Assembly: GCA_965261345.1 (NCBI GenBank)
Contig: OZ253449.1
Location: 64,001 to 128,000 of the forward strand
Length of the DNA: 64,000 nt
DNA from: Chloroflexota bacterium
Lineage (GTDB): Bacteria > Chloroflexota > UBA11872 > VXNJ01
Direction of reading: 5' to 3'
Shown: positions 11,912-62,475 of the stretch, piece after piece
Numbering within the stretch: position 1 is the stretch's first letter
How the letters are laid out: every line of letters begins with the position of its first letter
The notes under the pieces: model-generated
Databases searched by the model: none
Told to the model about the DNA's origin: nothing
What the model saw: only the letters and a program-made list of their open reading frames with translations
Translations under genes and position numbers: made by a program

Positions 11912-11939
11912 GGCGATCATATTCGCCATTATGTCGATT
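11912..11939 (+). other. dif-like site
   Basis: GGCGATCATAT-TCGCCA-TTATGTCGATT. Confidence 0.75.
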
Positions 11940-26863: not shown

Positions 26864-26891
26864 TATTGCCATAATCGCCATTATGTTGAGT
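26864..26891 (+). other. dif-like site (closest to canonical dif)
   Basis: TATTGCCATAA-TCGCCA-TTATGTTGAGT versus E. coli dif GGTGCGCATAA-TGTATA-TTATGTTAAAT. Confidence 0.85.
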
Positions 26892-32964: not shown

Positions 32965-32992
32965 ACCAAAAATTATTGCAATTATGTCGAGC
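32965..32992 (+). other. dif-like site
   Basis: ACCAAAAATTA-TTGCAA-TTATGTCGAGC. Confidence 0.75.
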
Positions 32993-33036
32993 GTGTACGT
33001 GGGTTGCGGCTCACCGACGTGCGCCCAACCGCTGGT

Positions 33037-33251
33037 TCAGCGGGTGTTGAAACCGTCAGGAGTTAATCCGGCTTGATGGATGATGCCGCGTAGCACCCCG
33101 GCGACGATCTAGCAGTGTCGCAGAACTATGGCGGTGCGGATCGAGTCAACGTCAGATTTGGCAAATTTAACGTGGTTGCCCTTTTGGTTGACCACTCGAA
33201 ATCAGGCGGATCGGAGTTCGCGGATGACTTGCCGATCAGTGAACTGCTCAA
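33037..33251 (-). pseudogene. hicA: HicA toxin with internal stops
   Basis: A*FRVVNQKGNHVKF...C*IVAGVLRGIIHQAGL. Confidence 0.7.
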
Positions 33252-42967: not shown

Positions 42968-42995
42968 ATTTTCTATATTCGCGATTATGTCGAGC
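42968..42995 (+). other. dif-like site
   Basis: ATTTTCTATAT-TCGCGA-TTATGTCGAGC. Confidence 0.75.
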
Positions 42996-43199
42996 GTGTA
43001 CGTGGGTTGCGGCTCACCGACGTGCGCCCAACCGCTGGTTCAGAGGGTGTCGAATTCGTCAGGAGGTAACCCTGCTTGACGAATGAAGCTGCCTAAAGTC
43101 CCAACTGCGATCTCGCGGTGGCGCGGAACTATAGCAGTGCGGACCGAGTCGCCGTCGGATTTGGCAAATAACGTTGCTGTGCTTTTGGCTAACCGCTCG

Positions 43200-44953
43200 A
43201 GGACGTGTCCCACGGTGTGGTGTAACTAAGCCGTCCTCTACGTTTAGGGGTTCGGCAGCTGCAACTCTGCAGAGTTGCAGCTGCCGGCAGGGCCGGCAGA
43301 TGGTTGCTGGGGCTTGCTGGGGGAGTTTCGAGTCCTTGGCTGTGACGGCGACTGCCGGTAAGGCGTCCATCATTTTGCCAGTTGCGACCATGGCGCGGTC
43401 GTGGTCATATGGGCTTCCATGGGTCCGAAGGCCGGCCCCGGCCCGTAACGGCTCGCATTCGGGCTCACCGGGCCGGGTTTGTTGGGAAAGTCGGCCCAAT
43501 TCGACGCTAGTGATCCTTATTTAGGCCCAGCTAGCGCCAAGCCGGGCGCACGACCTTCCATTTCCCTGGAGGGCGCTACGGCCCCCGGCGGCGGTTGCTA
43601 CCCCGCCGGCAATGCCAGCGGGGACTGCCTCTCTCCCGGAGATGGGGGTTGGCCGATTAAGGCCATCGAGTGCCTGGACATATAGCGGCGCTCGGATGCG
43701 AGCCATTCGTCGTTCTGCTCAATTAGGACCGCTCCGATAAGGCGCAGGACCGAGTCATCGTCGGGGAAGAGCTGTACTACCCGGGTGCGGCGCTTTAGCT
43801 CGCCCATAACGCGCTCTAGGGGATTGGTGGACCAGATCTTGCGCCAGTGCGAAGGCGGGAAGGCGGTGTAGGCAGTCAGGGCGATCTCGGAGTCCTCGAG
43901 GATCGTGGACAGTTCCGGATACTTGCGCTCTAAGCGATCGGCGAAATCTCCGAAGGCGTCCATGGCGCTCTGCTTGTCAGCCTGCCCAAACAACGACGCC
44001 AGTCCGGCTGCCACCAGCCCGCGGTCGCCGCTTCTGACCCTTGGCAGAAGATTGCGCCCAAAGTGTGTCCTGCACGTCTGCCAGGCGGCCTCGGGAATAA
44101 GCTTTGTCACCGCGTTGCCGATGGCTTGGTTCCCATCGGAGATCACCAGCCGCACGCCGGATAGACCGCGCGTTACCAGGGAGGCGATCAAGTCCTCCCA
44201 GAAGCCCTGCGCTTCGCTGTGGCCGATTGCAAGCCCCAGCAGCTCGCGATGGCCGTTCTCGTTTATGGCCATTGCTATGCCCACCGCCCGCGACCTTACC
44301 GCATGCGCGTTTCGGGCTTTTACGTAGGTGGCGTCGAGATAGAGGTACGGGAAGGTCGTATGCGCGAGATCGCGTTCGCGGAAGGCATTGACCAGCTCGT
44401 CGATGCCTTTGCAGATCCTTGACACCTCGGACCTGGAGATCCCGGCGTTTACTCCCATCGCCTCCACCAGCTTGTCGACCTTGCGGGTGGAGACGCCCTT
44501 GCTGTAGGCGGTCATGATGACGCCGTAGAGGGCCTGGTCGATGCGGCGCCGCCGCTCCAAGAACTCGGGGTAGTAGCTGCCTTGGCGCAGCTTGGGCAGG
44601 GCAATCTCGATGTCGCCCGCCCGGGTGGAGAGGGTGCGCTTGCGCGAGCCATCAAAGCCGATTGCGACGCTCGCCGTTGCGCTCGTGCGGTTTGGCGCCG
44701 ATGTTTTCGGCCAGGCCGGCGTCAATAAGTTCCTGGTAGGCGTGCCGTACGGCGCTGCGGACGAATTCGCTGCTGTCAAACCCTTGCTTGGCGATAAGGG
44801 CAAGCAAGGTCTGATAATCAAGTTGGGCCATCGATGGTTCCTCGACGAAGTAAGTGAATTGACTCCGTAGAGGTTTACACGAGGGCCCTTTGTCATCGCG
44901 TTGGCTTAGTTGATCAAGCGGGTGCTCTTACACCACTCCAGGGGACGTGATCC
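43200..44953 (-). mobile_element. IS256-family element
   Basis: Imperfect IRs GGACGTGTCCCACGGTGTGGTGTAA / GGATCACGTCCCCTGGAGTGGTGTAA; no matching TSD. Confidence 0.8.
43598..44831 (-). pseudogene. IS256 transposase with 5' frameshift
   Basis: PKLRQGSYYP, YLYLDATY, VISDG, WQTCRTHF, STNPLER; the likely start MAQLDY at 44831 is out of frame near 44655. Confidence 0.85.
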
Positions 44954-46170: not shown

Positions 46171-48092
46171 GAACAGCCAGGCAAACTGGAGTATGGACGC
46201 GGGTGAAAGTCCCGCTGGCAAAGGGCTGGCCGCCCATGCCGAACCGCGAGCCGTGCGCAGGCCGTCGCGAGACGGTCGGTGAAGCGTCGGTAGCGGGGCA
46301 TGCGGGCCGGGCTATCGAGCGCCGAAATACCGGTTCGGAGCGCCGAGACCGTGATTCTGGTCGAAGGCAACACCGACAGCGGCGATATTGGCAAGTCGCT
46401 GATCTGGGCTCCGCGGCGTCGAAGAACTCGCGCACGTATGCACGTCCATCCCCGGGACCTGGGAGACCTGTCCAGCGCCCCAACGCACTCGCAGCATTGG
46501 GGCCGCATCGGGAAGGAAGGAGTTTCGCAATCCGATGATGCACGCCGGACAGAAGTCTGATGCGGCCATAGTACCTGCGAAGGCGGCGAACAATGGGGCG
46601 TAAAACCCCGGCGGAGCCGCCGGAGGAAAGGGCCGCAAGCAAGAGGAACGCGCCAGGCACCGGCACGGACTACACCCAGGGGTGGGTTCCCGTGTCACCC
46701 GGAGCCGAACGCGTACGGCAACACGCCAAAGAGAACCCAGAGGGAAAACTCACCGCGCTCTTACACCACATAGACCTTGACGCGCTAAGGGATGCGTTCT
46801 ACGGGCTAAAACCCAATGCCGCTCCCGGCGCCGACGGGATCACGTGGAGGATGTACGAGGAAAACCTGGAAGAGAAACTTCTCGACCTTAAAGACCGCGT
46901 GCACAAAGGAGCATACCGAGCGACCCCCGTCCTGCGGGTAGCGATACCCAAACCGGACGGCGGGAAGCGAGCGCTTGGAATCGCATCCATAGAGGACAAG
47001 ATCCTGCAGCGGGCGGTGTGTCAACAGATCCTTGACCCGATCTATGAATCGGAGTTCGCCGGGTTCGCATACGGGTTCCGGCCAAAAAGATCAGCGCACG
47101 ACGCGCTGGACGCCCTGGCCTACGCCATCGAACGGAGAAAAGTCAACTGGATTCTTGACGCCGACATAAAAGGCTTCTTCGACCATCTCGACCGCGAGCG
47201 ACTCATCTCGTTCCTGGGAGAGCGAATCGGAGACAACCGCGTCCTGCGCCTAATCCGCAAATGGCTGAGCACCGGAGTAATGGAAGCCGGAGAACTATCC
47301 GACAGCGTGCAGGGAACACCGCAAGGGGCGCCGATATCGCCGCTGCTTGCCAACGTGTACCTGCACAAAGTCCTGGACTCATGGTTTGCCAAGGAATGGC
47401 GACCCAAAAGGGCCAGCGGCGAGGTCTACATCGTCAGGTATGCCGATGACTTCGTCCTGGGATTTGAGTACCGCAGCGATGCGGTCAGATTTGCAAAGGA
47501 TTTGCGAGACAGGCTAGAAGAGTACGGATTAGAGCTTGCAGCCCACAAGACCCGCCTGATCGAGTTCGGCAGATACGCGATCGAGAATCGCCGCCAGCGT
47601 AACGACAGCCGTCCGGAGACTTTTGACTTCCTCGGCCTAACGCATTACTGCCGGACGATGAGCAACGGAAAGTTCGGACTGGGACGCAAGCCCATCGCCA
47701 AGCGCGTCAGACGCACCCTGAAGGCGATCAAGGAACGACTACGCATGCGCATGCACGACGATCCCGCGCAGACCGGGCAATGGCTCGGGTTGGTGCTGCG
47801 GGGCTGGCTCGGCTATTACGCCGTCCCAACCAGCTCCACGTACCTGAGGAGTTTCAAATATGAACTCGAGCGCCAGTGGTTACGCAGCCTGCGCCGCCGG
47901 TCGCAGCATGATCGATTCCCATGGGGGCGCCTGCGCGCATTGAGCACTGCCCATCTCCCAACCGTCTCCATCCTCCACCCATGGCCCGCCGACCGTTTTG
48001 CCGTCAAACACTCAAGCTAAGAGCCCGGTGCGTTAACGCGCATGCCGGGATCCGTGCGGGGGGCACCGGGTAACCGGTGTTCCTACCGCGAA
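46171..48092 (+). mobile_element. Group II intron 1 (class E-like, RT without endonuclease)
   Basis: D5 GAGCCCGGTGCGTTAACGCGCATGCCGGGATC; D6 ending CCTACCGCGAA; EBS1 GATTCT (46353-46358) pairs with upstream AGAGTC. Confidence 0.92.
46593..48020 (+). CDS. ltrA: Group II intron reverse transcriptase/maturase
   Basis: IPKPDG..R.LGI, YGFRP, DIKGFFD, GTPQG..ISPLLAN, RYADDF, FDFLG. Confidence 0.95.
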   Translation: MGRKTPAEPPEERAASKRNAPGTGTDYTQGWVPVSPGAERVRQHAKENPEGKLTALLHHIDLDALRDAFYGLKPNAAPGADGITWRMYEENLEEKLLDLKDRVHKGAYRATPVLRVAIPKPDGGKRALGIASIEDKILQRAVCQQILDPIYESEFAGFAYGFRPKRSAHDALDALAYAIERRKVNWILDADIKGFFDHLDRERLISFLGERIGDNRVLRLIRKWLSTGVMEAGELSDSVQGTPQGAPISPLLANVYLHKVLDSWFAKEWRPKRASGEVYIVRYADDFVLGFEYRSDAVRFAKDLRDRLEEYGLELAAHKTRLIEFGRYAIENRRQRNDSRPETFDFLGLTHYCRTMSNGKFGLGRKPIAKRVRRTLKAIKERLRMRMHDDPAQTGQWLGLVLRGWLGYYAVPTSSTYLRSFKYELERQWLRSLRRRSQHDRFPWGRLRALSTAHLPTVSILHPWPADRFAVKHSS

Positions 48093-49728: not shown

Positions 49729-51657
49729 TTCGCGGTAGGAACACCGGTTACCCGGTGCCCCCCGCACGGATCCCGGCGTGCGCGTTAACGCACCGGGCTC
49801 TTAGCTTGAGTGTTTGACGGCAAAACGGTCGGCGGGCCATGGGTGGAGGATGGAGACGGTTGGGAGATGGGCAGTGCTCAATGCGCGCAGGCGCCCCCAT
49901 GGGAATCGATCATGCTGCGACCGGCGGCGCAGGCTGCGTAACCACTGGCGCTCGAGTTCATATTTGAAACTCCTCAGGTACGTGGAGCTGGTTGGGACGG
50001 CGTAATAGTTGAGCCAGCCCCGCAGCACCATCCCGAGCCATTGCCCGGTCTGCATCGGATCATCGTGCATGCGCATACGCAGCTTCTCTTTGATCGCCTT
50101 CAGGGTGCGTCTGACGCGCTTGGCGATGGGCTTGCGTCCCAGTCCGAACTTTCCGTTGCTCATCGTCCGGCAGTAATGCGTTAGGCCGAGGAAGTCAAAA
50201 GTCTCCGGCCGTCTTTCGCCTCGTTGGCGGCGGTTGTGCGCCGCTTGCCGGCCGAACTCGATCAGGCGGGTCTTGTGGGCTGCAAGCTCTAATCCGTACT
50301 CTTCTAGCCTGTCTCGCAAATCCTTTGCAAATCTGACCGCATCGCTGCGGTACTCAAATCCCAGGACGAAGTCATCGGCATACCTGACGATGTAGACCTC
50401 GCCGCTGGCCCTTTTGGGTCGCCATTCCTTGGCAAACCATGAGTCCAGGACTTTGTGCAGGTACACGTTGGCAAGCAGCGGCGATATCGGCGCCCCTTGC
50501 GGTGTTCCCTGCACGCTGTCGGATAGTTCTCCGGCTTCCATTACTCCGGTGCTCAGCCATTTGCGGATTAGGCGCAGGACGCGGTTGTCTCCGATTCGCT
50601 CTCCCAGGAACGAGATGAGTCGCTCGCGGTCGAGATGGTCGAAGAAGCCTTTTATGTCGGCGTCAAGAATCCAGTTGACTTTTCTCCGTTCGATGGCGTA
50701 GGCCAGGGCGTCCAGCGCGTCGTGCGCTGATCTTTTTGGCCGGAACCCGTATGCGAACCCGGCGAACTCCGATTCATAGATCGGGTCAAGGATCTGTTGA
50801 CACACCGCCCGCTGCAGGATCTTGTCCTCTATGGATGCGATTCCAAGCGCTCGCTTCCCGCCGTCCGGTTTGGGTATCGCTACCCGCAGGACGGGGGTCG
50901 CTCGGTATGCTCCTTTGTGCACGCGGTCTTTAAGGTCGAGAAGTTTCTCTTCCAGGTTTTCCTCGTACATCCTCCACGTGATCCCGTCGGCGCCGGGAGC
51001 GGCATTGGGTTTTAGCCCGTAGAACGCATCCCTTAGCGCGTCAAGGTCTATGTGGTGTAAGAGCGCGGTGAGTTTTCCCTCTGGGTTCTCTTTGGCGTGT
51101 TGCCGTACGCGTTCGGCTCCGGGTGACACGGGAACCCACCCCTGGGTGTAGTCCGTGCCGGTGCCTGGCGCGTTCCTCTTGCTTGCGGCCCTTTCCTCCG
51201 GCGGCTCCGCCGGGGTTTTACGCCCCATTGTTCGCCGCCTTCGCAGGTACTATGGCCGCATCAGACCCCTGTCCGGCGTGCATCATCGGCTACGGATACC
51301 TCCTTCCCGATGCGACCCCGGATCTGCGAGTGAACCGGGGTAATGCGCAGATCTCCCAGTTCCCGGCCCGGGACTTACGTACGTACATGAGTTCTTTGAC
51401 ACCGTCGAGCCCGGCTGACGGCTGGCCATCTATTGCCGCCGCCGGTGTTGCCTTCGACAAGATCAAGAGTCTCGGCGCTCGGGACAAACCCGATGTTTCG
51501 GTGCTCCATAGCTCTGTCCGCACGCTCCGCTGCCGACGCTTCACGGGTAACCTCGCGGTTACCCGCGCACGGCTCGCGGGCTGATGTGGGCTGGCTCTCG
51601 CCCTTCATCCCGGGAGACTTTCACTCCTTGTCCTGGTACCAGTTGGACTGGCTGTTC
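49729..51657 (-). mobile_element. Group II intron 2
   Basis: Near-identical D5/D6 to intron 1; EBS1 TGATCT (51460-51465, minus strand) pairs with upstream AGGTCA. Confidence 0.92.
49801..51228 (-). CDS. ltrA: Group II intron reverse transcriptase/maturase
   Basis: 475 aa, near-identical to 46593-48020 except a short divergent patch. Confidence 0.95.
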   Translation of the reverse strand: MGRKTPAEPPEERAASKRNAPGTGTDYTQGWVPVSPGAERVRQHAKENPEGKLTALLHHIDLDALRDAFYGLKPNAAPGADGITWRMYEENLEEKLLDLKDRVHKGAYRATPVLRVAIPKPDGGKRALGIASIEDKILQRAVCQQILDPIYESEFAGFAYGFRPKRSAHDALDALAYAIERRKVNWILDADIKGFFDHLDRERLISFLGERIGDNRVLRLIRKWLSTGVMEAGELSDSVQGTPQGAPISPLLANVYLHKVLDSWFAKEWRPKRASGEVYIVRYADDFVLGFEYRSDAVRFAKDLRDRLEEYGLELAAHKTRLIEFGRQAAHNRRQRGERRPETFDFLGLTHYCRTMSNGKFGLGRKPIAKRVRRTLKAIKEKLRMRMHDDPMQTGQWLGMVLRGWLNYYAVPTSSTYLRSFKYELERQWLRSLRRRSQHDRFPWGRLRALSTAHLPTVSILHPWPADRFAVKHSS

Positions 51658-57793: not shown

Positions 57794-58128
57794 AGTGATC
57801 ATCGCTCGGCTTTAGCCACGGGTCAATCTGCTGGGTGCGAGCGTGCGGCACCTATGGATGGCATTGAGCCGCTGTCCGCCTGTCGGACGAGCGATTGTTT
57901 TTACTTGGTGAGATATTGTTTCCGCATCACCACACGACTTGCTCCCGACGGTGGGGCCACGATATTTGGTGTGCGCAATCCGGTCGGAAGTTTTTCGACA
58001 ACATCATATCGTGCATCAACGGATCTAAGCCTGCTTTGTTTGGATCGCAAATCTGATACCCTCGATAACCCGGCAATCAATGACGCACGGCGTGAGATTC
58101 ATATCCACCAATTAACTGAAGAATTCAA

Positions 58129-58374
58129 ATGTCGGAGGACAGCAACCGTCACGTGGTCACTAATCCTGAAGGTGGGTGGGATGTCGTCAAGCCGAACGCG
58201 GATCGGTCGTCAGCTTATCTGCAAACGCAAGCTGATGCGGTTGAGCTCACGCGCGAAATCGTAGAGAACTTTGGCGGGGGCGAAGTCGTGATTCACCGCC
58301 GCGATGGCCGGATCCGGGATTCCGATACAGTTCCGCCCGGGAACGACCCTAACCCGCCACGCGACTCTCGTTAA
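58129..58374 (+). CDS. DUF2188 family protein
   Basis: RHVV....GGW.V.....R.S....TQ.DA...EVVIH..DGRIRDSDT. Confidence 0.85.
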   Translation: MSEDSNRHVVTNPEGGWDVVKPNADRSSAYLQTQADAVELTREIVENFGGGEVVIHRRDGRIRDSDTVPPGNDPNPPRDSR

Positions 58375-58635
58375 TCGGTCGCCAATTAGAAGTGCCGAGT
58401 GACTAACCTAGCGGCTGAGATTCGGTAGTGACATTGGTCTGCCGACTCTCGGCGAATCTGTCAGAGTGATGGGCCAGTTCGAACTGGAGCAATCCTATTG
58501 GCTGGTTTCCTTGCAGGCGGTGGCATTCGTGCGTGAACGGATCGTTTCTGCGCCGGCCCTTTCGCCGAATTGAATCAATTGTGGTTGAGGTGAACCGATT
58601 CAACGGCAAGTCGCGATTCGAGCCGAGAGATCCAC

Positions 58636-59553
58636 TTGGGACAACATAAAAACCCACAAGAGTATTGGCGGCATTTCGGGAGTCCACCCGGCAAACGCAT
58701 GATCTGGCAATTTGACACGAAAATTCTGAAATATTCCAATCGCCCAATTCCAATCAAGAATGTCGCGCAAGCACGCAATTACTATTCGCCAGTTGACGAA
58801 AAAATGCTGGCTGAATTGATTGAAGCTCCTGCCCACGGGCCACTAAACAAGCTCCGCAACCGAGAGGACCTTAACCCCGACGATCGCTCGAGCGTTGCGT
58901 GGTACATAAACGCGATGGTTCGGCGGGGGCCGCGCGCCCGAAATCATTTGCTGGAAGTATTACCAACCGAATTCAGCGCCTATCGTAAACGACTAATTGC
59001 AAATCTCGACCAGATGATTGAGCGGTACGGACATACCAGTGCCGAATGGATCAACGCACTTGATCAATTGAGTGAACGCATCCTTCGCGGCGACGTTTCT
59101 GACAAGGACGACTTAATCAGGTCGCAGTATTTGGTGGGAAAAGTCGCACTTGCCGTCTTTCATATGCAATGGGTGATAGTCCATTCGAATCGAACTGGTG
59201 AGTTCATAACCAATGACAACCCGGTGTTTTTTACTGAAGGGATCGGCTTGGGGCACCCACAAGCAGAATTGACTCTTCCGCTGTCGCCGCGCACGGCGTT
59301 GCATGCGTCGTGGCGAGGACGGGAATTCGGGCTCGAACATGCATCAGCGACTCAAAATCAACTGGTGAAAGAGATTAATCGACGGACGGTATATGTTGCG
59401 GATCGCATGTTGTACTCACGCGGTAAGCACGATTGGTTAGCGGCAATCGCCGCAAAAAAGCCAAATGTCTTGCTGAAGCCCCTGTACTTTGGACATCCTG
59501 GATTCCAACCAGTTGAAATCCCGGACGAGGACCAATATGCTAGCGTGATTTGA
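58636..59553 (+). CDS. DUF4238 family protein
   Basis: H..PQ.Y.R.F N-terminus; FITNDNPV...LPLSPR motif. Confidence 0.75.
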   Translation: MGQHKNPQEYWRHFGSPPGKRMIWQFDTKILKYSNRPIPIKNVAQARNYYSPVDEKMLAELIEAPAHGPLNKLRNREDLNPDDRSSVAWYINAMVRRGPRARNHLLEVLPTEFSAYRKRLIANLDQMIERYGHTSAEWINALDQLSERILRGDVSDKDDLIRSQYLVGKVALAVFHMQWVIVHSNRTGEFITNDNPVFFTEGIGLGHPQAELTLPLSPRTALHASWRGREFGLEHASATQNQLVKEINRRTVYVADRMLYSRGKHDWLAAIAAKKPNVLLKPLYFGHPGFQPVEIPDEDQYASVI

Positions 59554-59650
59554 GCTCAAATCCGAACGGCGCAGCCTAGTGCAACGAAGTGAAATGCCGC
59601 AACGAACCGCGTCATCTGAACTTTCGATTGGTCCTCAGCAGACAGCGTCC

Positions 59651-59672
59651 GTTTTTCATAATCGCAATTATG
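59651..59672 (+). other. dif-like site split by intron 3 (remainder at 61597-61602)
   Basis: GTTTTTCATAA-TCGCAA-TTATG|intron|TCTTGC. Confidence 0.8.
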
Positions 59673-61596
59673 GAACAGCCAGGCTAACTGGCATGGGACA
59701 GGGGTGCAAGTCCCCCGTGCTGTAAAGAAGGGAGCCATTCTGCAGCACTCTGCGAGTCATGCGCTGATCGCCGCGAGGCGGTTGGTGAAGCGTTGACAGC
59801 AGCGCGTGTGGGCGGGGCGATCGAGCGCCGCAACCTTTACATTCCGGAGCGCCGAGGCTTTCATATTGGTCGAAGGCAACACCTGCTGCGACGACAAATG
59901 GCCAGTCGCAGTTTGGGCTCCGCGGCGTCAAAGAACCCAGGCACGCACGTACGTCTCCTGCCGGGACCTGGGAGATCTGCCAGGTGCCCCGCCATCTCGC
60001 ACGACGGGGCCGCATCGGGGAGGGAGGCAACCGTAGCTGATGATGCACGCCGGGCAGAAGTCTGACGCGGCCGTAGTAGCTGTGAAGTCGGCGAACAAGG
60101 GAGAGCGATCTCCGGCGGAGTCGATAGAGCCAAGGGCCGCGACCAAGAGAAATCCGCAACGCCCGGCACGGGCCGAACCCAGAGTCGGGTAACCGTGTCA
60201 CTCGGAGCCGAGCGGATACGGCAATACGTTAAGGCAAATCCCGGAGGAAAACTCACCGCGCTCCTGCACCACTTAACCCCCGAAACGCTCTTTGCGGCCT
60301 ACTTTGCGCTCAAGCCGAACGCGGCCCCCGGCGCCGACGGGATAACGTGGCAGATGTACGGGGAAGGACTGACAGATAACCTGTCCGGCCTTCACCAACG
60401 CTTGCACAAAGGAGCGTACCGGGCGGCCCCCGTCCTAAGGGTGGAAATACCCAAACCGGACGGCGGAGTGCGAAAGCTCGGAATCGCATCCCTGGAAGAC
60501 AAAATCCTCCAGCGGGCGGTGACAGACAACCTCCTGAACCCGATCTACGAATCGGAGTTCGCGGGATTTAGCTACGGGTTCAGGCCCAATCGCTCAGCCC
60601 ACGATGCGCTGGACGCGCTCGCCTACGTAATAGGGCAACGCCGGGTCAACTGGGTAGCTGAGGTGGACATCAAGGGGTTCTTCGACAATATCGATCGGGA
60701 ACAGCTAATGGCGTTCCTGCAAGATCGCATCGCAGACCGCAGAGTCCTGCGCCTCATCCGAAAGTGGCTCGCCGCCGGTGTCCTTGACAACGGACTAAAG
60801 GTCGACCCCGCACGGGGCACACCGCAGGGAGCGCCGATATCGCCGCTGCTTGCCAACGTGTACCTGCTTGGGTGGGCTCGACCAATGGTTCGCGCGACAG
60901 TGGCGGCCGCAGAAAGCCATCGGCCAGGCCTACATGGTCAGATACGCCGATGACTTCGTACTGGGATTTGAGCACCGCCAAGATGCGGAGAGGTTCCTTA
61001 GGGACCTAGAGGAGCGGTTCACGAAATACGGACTGGAGTTGCACCCCGAGAAGACGCGCCTGATCGAGTTCGGCAAAAACGCGGCGCGTAACCACCGCCG
61101 GAGAGGCGAGCGACGACCGGAGACCTTTGACTTCCTCGGTCTGACGCACTACTGCCGAACGACTCGAACCGGACGCTTCGGACTGGGACGCAAGCCATCG
61201 TCCAAACGCGTTCGCCGCACCCTGAATGCGTTAAAGAACGCGCTGCGCTGGCGCATGCACGACGATCCGGTGGAAACCGGTCAATGGCTCGGAAGAGTAC
61301 TTCGTGGCTGGCTCGGCTACTACGCCGTCCCCACAAGCTACAAATCCCTGGACCAGTTCAAGCGCGCCCTGCAGTGGCTTTGGCTCCGCACTCTGCGCCG
61401 CCAGTCGCAAACCGCAAACTTTGCGTGGGAGCGGCTAGAAGCGATGTGTGAACAGCTTTGGCCCCGCATCCGCATCATCCACCCATGGCCCGCCACACGC
61501 TTTGCCGTCACCCACTCAAGGTAAGAGCCGGATGCGCTAACGCGCACGTCCGGATCCGTGCGGGGGGAGATCGGTAACGATCTTCCCTACCGCGAA
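59673..61596 (+). mobile_element. Group II intron 3
   Basis: Starts GAACAGCCAGG; D5 GAGCCGGATGCGCTAACGCGCACGTCCGGATC; ends CCTACCGCGAA. Confidence 0.92.
60195..61524 (+). pseudogene. ltrA: Intron RT/maturase, frameshifted near 60870
   Basis: RT motifs up to ISPLLANVYL in one frame; RYADDF and domain X in another. Confidence 0.88.
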
Positions 61597-61687
61597 TCTT
61601 GCTCCATTAATCGCGTAGCGCAGATTTGGCCAGCTTGCGTCCCGGGTTCGAGAGCAATCGCTCCGGTGAATCAATTCGCGATCGGAA

Positions 61688-62447: not shown

Positions 62448-62475
62448 GTTCGACCTAATCGCCATTATGTCTTGT
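62448..62475 (+). other. dif-like site
   Basis: GTTCGACCTAA-TCGCCA-TTATGTCTTGT. Confidence 0.85.

Follow-up and report, generated by a model that had tools for sequence, protein, structure and literature searches.

The window analysed here is a stretch of 64,000 nucleotides, positions 64,001 to 128,000 of contig OZ253449.1 (assembly GCA_965261345.1), from a Chloroflexota bacterium whose 2.39-Mb genome is assembled in one contig. A scan of 88 of the 92 open reading frames (ORFs) picked describes it as an island of toxin-antitoxin pairs (PIN, HicB, HigB, RelB, Phd, HEPN/MNT, TacA/GNAT), defence-type genes (GmrSD, a UvrD-like helicase with a Zn ribbon, HNH, and an RNase T fused to a superinfection-immunity domain) and insertion sequence (IS) elements (IS21, IS110, IS256, IS3, IS4 and IS1380-like). 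Short sites resembling dif, the target of the XerC and XerD recombinases, recur along the island on one strand. Three group II introns are present (Table 1). Two of them, A and C, are associated with IS genes; the third, B, splits one of the 28-bp dif-like sites, its insertion point following the fifth base of the TTATGTC arm. Intron B, its split site and the question of whether such sites are its habitual target are the subject of this report.

Table 1. Features of the intron B locus and of related elements, in window coordinates
Feature	Position	Strand	Remarks
Group II intron B	59673..61596	+	Ends fixed by the empty targets of sister copies; Rfam
Ribozyme domain I-IV core (RF02005)	59707..59937	+	154.1 bits
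Domains V-VI (RF00029)	61523..61597	+	40.1 bits against a threshold of 40; triad and bulged A read by eye
Candidate EBS2 CCTTTAC	59834..59840	+	Loop located by covariation in relatives; weak assignment
EBS1 CATATT	59862..59867	+	Loop of the Rfam model hairpin; covariation in copies
Broken RT/maturase ORF	60100..61524	+	Three frame pieces, ~60100-60153, 60138-60866 and 60877-61518
Left arm of the dif-like site, GTTTTTCATAA	59651..59661	+	Identical arm at genome 190940
Central 6 bp of the site, TCGCAA (TCGCNA subfamily)	59662..59667	+	
IBS1 ATTATG, 5' exon end (last centre base and inner five right-arm bases)	59667..59672	+	5/6 with EBS1
Outer half of right arm, TCTTGC, start of 3' exon	61597..61602	+	Matches TTATGTCTTG at 767 and 62465
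Intact site CCTAA TCGCCA TTATGTCTTGT	62448..62475	+	Next dif-like site after B
Intact site CATAT TCGCCA TTATGTC	11912..11939	+	Bottom strand ...AATATG is the perfect complement of B's EBS1
Intact site CATAA TCGCCA TTATGTT	26864..26891	+	93 nt after the GmrSD gene
1830-bp segment with DUF4238 gene (58636-59553)	57846..59675	+	Duplicated at genome 189141-190970, 99.9% identity
Sister intron A	46171..48092	+	Intact 475-aa RT; 17 nt 3' of an IS110-family transposase ORF; not in a dif-like site
Sister intron C	49729..51657	-	Intact RT; interrupts the start of an IS3-type orfA; not in a dif-like site
EBS, exon-binding site; IBS, intron-binding site; RT, reverse transcriptase.

Intron B is 1924 nt long and displays the ends 5'-GAACAG...CGCGAA-3'. 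It opens with GAACAGCCAGG and closes with CCCTACCGCGAA, and the + strand across the locus reads ...GTTTTTCATAA TCGCAA TTATG/GAACAGCC...CCGCGAA/TCTTGCTCC, slashes marking intron boundaries here and below. At Rfam gathering thresholds, the whole window yields three matches to RF02005 (group-II-D1D4-6), one per intron (46206-46428 +, 51390-51621 - and that of B, which covers domains I to IV and far exceeds the gathering score of 49), and a single match to RF00029 (domains V and VI), that of B, which lies barely above its threshold. The AGC triad of domain V can be recognised by eye, as can the bulged A of domain VI, 8 nt before the end of the intron. Introns A, B and C share GAACAGCCAG at their 5' end and CCTACCGCGAA at their 3' end. 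The genome holds nine full copies and two fragments of this intron family, the eight other full copies being 73.5-74.8% identical to B.

The canonical group II ends, 5'-GUGYG...AY-3', are not found in these introns: all copies of the genus have GAACAG...GAA, as set by unoccupied targets. The IS3-type orfA target, ...GAACAGATCA/TCAACAAG, is empty in nine of 13 instances (the other four being occupied) and joins exactly at GAACAG...GYGAA. A stretch 3' of an IS110-type gene offers six targets, of which two are filled and four empty, and a third, IS-like repeat offers 13 (three filled, ten empty); both join exactly at the intron ends. Since three target types possess unoccupied paralogues with exact joins, the ends 5'-GAACAG/GAACGG...GYGAA-3' are fixed to the base, and the non-canonical ends of B are thereby proven exact to the base. 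Across the introns of the genus, the ends read 5'-GAACAG/GAACGG (or GATCGG)...GYGAA-3'. Metagenomic relatives with a following GCCAGGCTAACTGG mostly have the canonical GUGCG start, and a relative from Paracoccaceae starts with GAGCGCC. Exceptions to the canonical ends are already on record (PMC4424553; PMC7923331). The ribozyme part of the B family amounts to ~500 nt, within the 450-700 nt described for IIE and IIF introns (PMC3753933). B is best described as a small IIB-like intron of the Rfam D1D4-6 type. EBS3 and IBS3 were not located for B.

Excision of B restores CATAA-TCGCAA-TTATGTC, a perfect member of the same-strand dif-like family. The restored core agrees with CATAATCGCNATTATGTC at each of its 17 specified bases, for which our own arithmetic gives a chance of ~6e-11 per position. 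An earlier prediction, made from the sequence of the window, had placed a group II intron precisely within the conserved arm of a dif-like site and had proposed that its removal rebuilds a site with a TCGCAA centre; the Rfam matches, the exact ends and the restored core bear out both proposals. An empty paralogue lies 67 kb away, at genome 190940, where the identical 28 bases GCGTCCGTTTTTCATAATCGCAATTATG are followed by TCGATTAG, which begins with TC; left arm, centre and TTATGTC are all as in the site of B, and this site is intact. On the other side of the intron, the first bases of the 3' exon, TCTTGC, complete TTATGTCTTG, and the intact arms predicted at window 767 and 62465 do carry TTATGTCTTG exactly. 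The empty allele of B would be ...CATAATCGCAATTATG joined directly to TCTTGCTCC. An orthologous empty site with B's own 3' flank was not found in the genomes of relatives, and in its own genome the empty counterpart is the half-site paralogue only. In genome G003, of the same genus, the 3' flank of B is 91% conserved from about base 11 and is preceded by unrelated sequence, neither site nor intron. The insertion displaces the outer six arm bases by 1.9 kb and replaces the conserved T and C after TTATG by G and A; this splitting of the arm may plausibly inactivate the site.

The split site belongs to a numerous family. The pattern CATAANNNNNNTTATG, with at most one mismatch, occurs six times in the window, always on the + strand, as compared to 0.63 expected, and none of 100 shuffles reaches six; a longer fuzzy search adds sites at window 32970 and 42973. 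Nine CATAA-TCGCNA-TTATGTC sites, that of B included, are distributed on the + strand between 72 and 199 kb of the genome. Related sites extend to 218 kb and, mostly on the - strand, occupy 2.33-2.39 Mb, with smaller clusters at 1.30-1.34 and 1.60-1.64 Mb. The cumulative GC skew is lowest at 1.18 Mb and peaks over an interval that runs from 2.36 Mb, by way of the contig ends, to ~0.12 Mb, which puts the origin near 1.18 Mb and the terminus within that interval; the main cluster of sites, from 2.33 Mb to 0.22 Mb, is located at the terminus. In each site, a 6-bp centre separates two 11-bp arms whose inner bases are CATAA and TTATG, and this 11-6-11 layout is the hallmark of dif, as in E. coli. 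Between the + strand and the mostly - strand arrays, at genome 1561, stands a perfectly palindromic site, ATTAGACATAA TCATTA TTATGTCTAAT, a candidate for the main dif. Genome G003 has a similar palindromic site at 1791391, adjoining its own array.

The genome encodes just two tyrosine recombinases (PF00589), the best NCBIfam matches of which are XerD (210 bits) and XerC (143 bits), and both are Xer-like, no integron integrase being present. Paralogous flanks lose or gain their homology inside the site in both of the pairs examined. The 1830-bp segment to the left of B, duplicated almost without change, has its right end at TTATGTC and its far (left) end away from any dif-like site. Because this duplication ends at the site, the junctions have been reshuffled or homogenised; gene conversion can explain the near-identical left flank as well as recombination at the site can. 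The sites are putative targets of Xer enzymes; alternatively, the motif could be another kind of repeat into which the intron landed by chance. This coincidence seems very improbable to us. It draws on the scores of the two recombinases, which are below the equivalog cut-offs of 329.6 and 335.15, and on the left boundary of the duplication. It is contradicted by the dif-type layout, by the clustering of the sites at the skew-defined terminus with its palindromic main-dif candidate, by the homology breakpoints inside sites, and by two further intron remnants at the same register (see below), in sites that cover less than 1 kb of a 2.4-Mb genome. In the second pair of flanks, a segment of ~225 bp (82% identity) starts at ATTATGTCGAG in window 32970-33215 and 42973-43215, with different left sides; a repeated cassette start or a small mobile element might account for it.

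The RT/maturase ORF of B is broken: its start codon is lost and two frameshifts interrupt it. It keeps the YADD motif and has no endonuclease domain. Pfam RVT_1 matches both main pieces, and the pieces share 65-68% amino-acid identity (blastx) with the intact RT of sister copy A. The latter matches TIGR04416 (group II RT/maturase) with 344 bits against a cut-off of 300. It has no cysteine-rich C-terminal domain and neither the room nor the cysteines for an endonuclease domain, which places the intron family among the endonuclease-less classes (PMC4424553). The copies are mosaic: A and C have a nearly identical RT gene and different domains I, and two copies in IS3 targets (genome 1585797 and 137800) carry an A-type EBS1 that pairs with their own exon at just two to three of six positions. 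This suggests gene conversion between copies after insertion. In genome G003, a twintron (L004, G003:C1:806436-810285) consists of one intron copy lodged in the RT gene of a second (...TTCCTCGGCCTAA/), a target that its EBS1 matches perfectly. The same genome contains an ORF-less derivative of ~690 nt (L015/L019, G003:C1:352569-353262), whose 5' and 3' parts measure 549 and 83 nt and whose EBS1 (6/6) and EBS2 (7 bp) fit its own target.

EBS1 of B is CATATT, the last six bases of the 8-nt loop in the EBS1 hairpin of the Rfam model. Twelve of 15 copies from four genomes pair with their exon at all six positions, B at five, and the two copies with a mosaic domain I at two to three. This covariation of loop and exon makes the EBS1 assignment safe, and it also substantiates the loop that had been proposed from the window as pairing at five of six positions with ATTATG. 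By our own arithmetic, at least five of six pairs would be reached by chance in ~3% of cases when G-U is allowed. In addition, the EBS1 of B complements without mismatch the bottom strand at window 11918, in an intact site. For EBS2, the relatives exhibit an internal loop that follows GAGCNCC-GAAA and forms helices of 5-7 bp in seven of 12 distinct loop/exon pairs, a figure to be read with its weak control, non-cognate loop/exon pairs reaching at least 6 bp in 19%. The corresponding candidate of B, CCTTTAC, pairs with the exon at four of seven positions by hand count, with a 2-nt gap. Prediction of targets from EBS1 and EBS2 combined was tried and abandoned as uninformative, partly because the EBS2 assignment of B is weak; chance matches in ordinary genes ranked first.

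Two other junctions are found at the same spot of dif-like sites. The first (L018) lies in genome G003 at 1784678-96 on the - strand, with the sequence ...GCTCGACATAA TTGCAA ATACG/GAATGGCCAGGCTAGCTGG (...GACATAA TTGCAA ATACG/GAATGGCC). This truncated 5' end of an intron spans ~190 nt, matches nucleotides 6-155 of B at 77% identity (E 9e-19) and is followed directly by a Phd/PIN cassette. Its site, CGTAT TTGCAA TTATGTCGAGC on the + strand, belongs to a run of + strand sites between 1750 and 1791 kb. In a tree of the first 185 nt (12 rows, the 60-nt fragment L016 being left out), L018 and B are sisters with a support of 82/89, L018 being on a long branch; L018 is the only other copy of the B clade with a preserved 5' junction. 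The second is a stub of ~54 intron-like nucleotides in the source genome (G000), at 2379894 on the - strand, with an orthologue in genome G002, of the same genus: ...GAAGTAA TAGGGA TTACG/GATTAGCCAGGCTAATTGGCA (GATTAGCCAGGCTAATTGG). It ranks directly below the true introns among the nhmmer matches, with an alignment that begins at model position 1; its site on the + strand is CGTAA TCCCTA TTACTTC. At each of the three junctions, five bases of the arm precede the intron; in L018 and the stub, the intron lies on the strand opposite to the intact TTATGTC arm.

B and the two related remnants in the same spot hint at an intron lineage that favours dif-like sites. For the small clade of B, we rate it an even call that this position of dif-like sites is a preferred target. 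A stricter proposal is tentative and falls short of an even call: the endonuclease-less IIB-like clade with GAACAG...AA ends would have XerCD dif-like sites of terminus-side cassette arrays as its specific homing target, entering the inner arm on either strand of the near-palindrome. B would have been inserted by reverse splicing into DNA between bases 5 and 6 of the arm, guided by its EBS1 loop, CAUAUU, which pairs with AUUAUG, the inner portion of the site where conservation is highest. The cDNA synthesis would presumably have been primed at a replication fork, as the RT has no nuclease, and the RT of B would have lost its start codon and reading frame later. Sister copies in the genus have repeated mobile DNA as their homing targets (IS3, IS110 and a further IS-like repeat); the repeated, highly conserved core of dif-like sites is the same kind of target, which fits the habit of the family.

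Several observations weigh against such a preference. B pairs with its exon less completely at EBS1 than most copies do, and the longest contiguous helix between its whole EBS2-type loop and the exon is 3 bp. With EBS1 and EBS2 taken together, the real site of B scores 9/13, and 781 genome positions score at least 10/13, the top ones in ordinary genes. The third junction is ~54 nt long, with an nhmmer E of 0.34 and four mismatches of its site to the consensus, and both remnants are devoid of their EBS1. The nearest full-length relative of B (in G002, 77%) and its fragment are found at CGCATATTTCA, which is not dif-like, and the ORF-less copy of G003 at GCATTCTA. When one genome per species was scanned for the EBS1 hairpin, with CATATT or its wobble variants, 16 loci were returned, none with CATATT and none with an evident dif-like 5' flank, as read by eye and not by a register scan; several were not introns, and the real ones (from Alphaproteobacteria, Paracoccaceae and Rhodothermales) had other targets. 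In a metagenome scan by the 5' motif of B (80 loci fetched of 107 matching stretches, 82 intron starts, 81 of them readable with at least 25 nt of 5' flank), 0 of 81 relatives stood behind a dif-like half-site and none had the EBS1 CATATT. These metagenomic introns mostly start with GUGCG and are wider relatives, outside the clade of B. Finally, B and L018 are 72-77% identical, roughly within the 76-91% span of cassette DNA between species of the genus.

Searches of the genus and beyond cover the family as follows. RF02005 matches are present in four of seven genomes of the genus and seven of 57 of the order, BLAST matches in eight of 101 genomes, and, with domain I of B as the BLAST query, in five of 98 genomes of the class; outside the genus, the searches of the order, the class and the BLAST set gave nothing new. 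The 3' intron fragments in genome G005 and at 1304920 of the source genome are without a dif-like 3' exon. Contigs from four sequencing runs were compared as well (X1, probably the source sample; X5 and X7, from two other studies; and X10). B is present in X5 and X7 at ~99% identity, with 11-12 differences over 1186 bases and no indel reported at the places of its two frameshifts. Their match to the window stops at 59667, with ATTATG kept, and in X5 is preceded by 48 unlike bases. X10 provides a 354-nt contig with the 3' exon from its first base (61597) and 11 unlike bases ahead of it. Contigs of X5 and X7 also join window 59693 to 61562, skipping 1868 nt; the shorter side of this join is only 28 letters, and the join, which may stem from another element, was set aside.

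These data bear on a rival history, which we regard as rather unlikely: a single old, probably ectopic, insertion in a dif-like site, the half-site having then been spread by recombination (Xer or homologous) and descent, with the intron as a hitchhiker. The RT of B is dead, and the ~99% identical copy in X5 and X7 has no indel at the frameshifts, yet its flank differs beyond ATTATG. The left flank of 1830 bp is duplicated at 99.9% and ends at the site, and B pairs poorly with that site (5/6 at EBS1, 3 bp at EBS2). Room for a single insertion is also left by the divergence of B and L018, which resembles that of cassettes between species. On the other hand, the five bases before the intron differ between the junctions (TTATG, ATACG and TTACG), as do the centres and the strand relative to the intact arm. 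Retrohoming, a known way for introns to multiply, is at work in this genome, where four of 13 IS3 targets are filled, and the EBS1 of B perfectly complements the bottom strand of an intact site (window 11918) in the same array. A genuine target preference, as opposed to passive spread, appears somewhat the better account of the three junctions. The original prediction of a lineage that exploits Xer sites, and that would be revealed by dif-like arms beside homologous introns, is sustained within the genus by the two remnants at the same register, but not among the metagenomic relatives, and the weak pairing counts against it.

Group IIC-attC introns, to which B had been likened, are described inside the attC sites of integron cassette arrays (PMC3001079; PMC4424553). 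Like them, B represents an intron lineage in the short recombination sites delimiting gene cassettes, within arrays that hold many toxin-antitoxin genes. Unlike them, B is of the D1D4-6 type, with a ribozyme of ~500 nt and relatives that use EBS2, and does not fall in class C as far as the weakly controlled EBS2 assignment allows this to be judged. It resides in a Xer-type dif-like site, not in an attC, and on the same strand as the upstream gene, not opposite to transcription. Sequence pairing is the likely determinant in place of a bulged stem-loop, and one full copy and two remnants are known. A true IIC-attC analogue would instead recognise the folded single-stranded hairpin of the palindromic site, and might have a role in making or freezing cassettes. 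We consider this improbable. In all three cases, the CATAA/TTATG inverted repeat directly precedes the insertion point, the weak EBS2 pairing would allow for another determinant, and toxin-antitoxin cassettes come directly after the truncated introns; yet the stem would be of just five A/T-rich base pairs with IBS1 inside it, the intron is not of class C and its relatives use EBS2, and B is oriented like the upstream gene. The predicted analogy stands therefore in a loose form, both kinds of intron being found in cassette recombination sites, and fails as to class and orientation; of stem-loop recognition there is no indication.

The preferred reading, a target preference of the B clade for dif-like sites, can be compared with other systems. 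RmInt1-type introns are endonuclease-less IIB-like introns that home into insertion sequences. B resembles them by an RT without endonuclease domain and by sister copies that home into IS3 and IS110 by means of EBS1 and EBS2; it differs by its family termini, GAACAG...AA and not GUGYG...AY, and by the target of its clade, a recombination site and not an IS. Integrative mobile elements exploiting Xer (IMEX) are bounded by dif-like sites. In common with them and with the Acinetobacter dif modules, in which dif-like sites flank accessory genes (PMC12907356), several dif-like sites flank accessory genes here, and the XerC-like and XerD-like proteins of the host are the only candidate recombinases. 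The present array differs from both in its many same-strand candidate sites, spread along more than 150 kb next to the terminus of a small chromosome. With RmInt1-type, IIE and IIF introns the B family further shares a greater weight of EBS1 than of EBS2, and with IIE and IIF introns a ribozyme in the 450-700 nt range (PMC3753933). In halophile integrons and clusters of attC sites lacking an integrase (CALINs), the IIB introns UHB.I2, H.ha.F1 and H.ha.F2 adjoin attC, some of these introns being of bacterial class E and some copies truncated (PMC7923331). They share with B non-canonical ends (5'-UUGCG..GU-3' in UHB.I2), truncated copies, the cassette orientation and toxin-antitoxin arrays; unlike these introns, which lie beside attC, B splits a dif-like site itself, in a genome without integron integrase.

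The part of the matching titles and abstracts covered, on group II introns together with dif or XerC, holds no report of an intron in a dif or Xer site; introns in cassette recombination sites are so far known only for the attC sites of integrons. At the level of the ribozyme, the family provides natural group II introns with proven GAACAG...AA termini, useful for establishing how far the terminal nucleotides may vary. If the target preference is true, an intron splitting an arm would lock the neighbouring cassettes, and truncated copies would mark old junctions. Dif-bounded cassette arrays are poorly described beyond Acinetobacter plasmids and IMEX, and such introns would serve as natural markers of their history. 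The preference would also amount to a second, independent invention of life in a cassette recombination site, by another class of intron and in Xer-type sites. Such a second case would show retro-introns to have a general safe harbour in recombination sites that are short, repeated and highly conserved.

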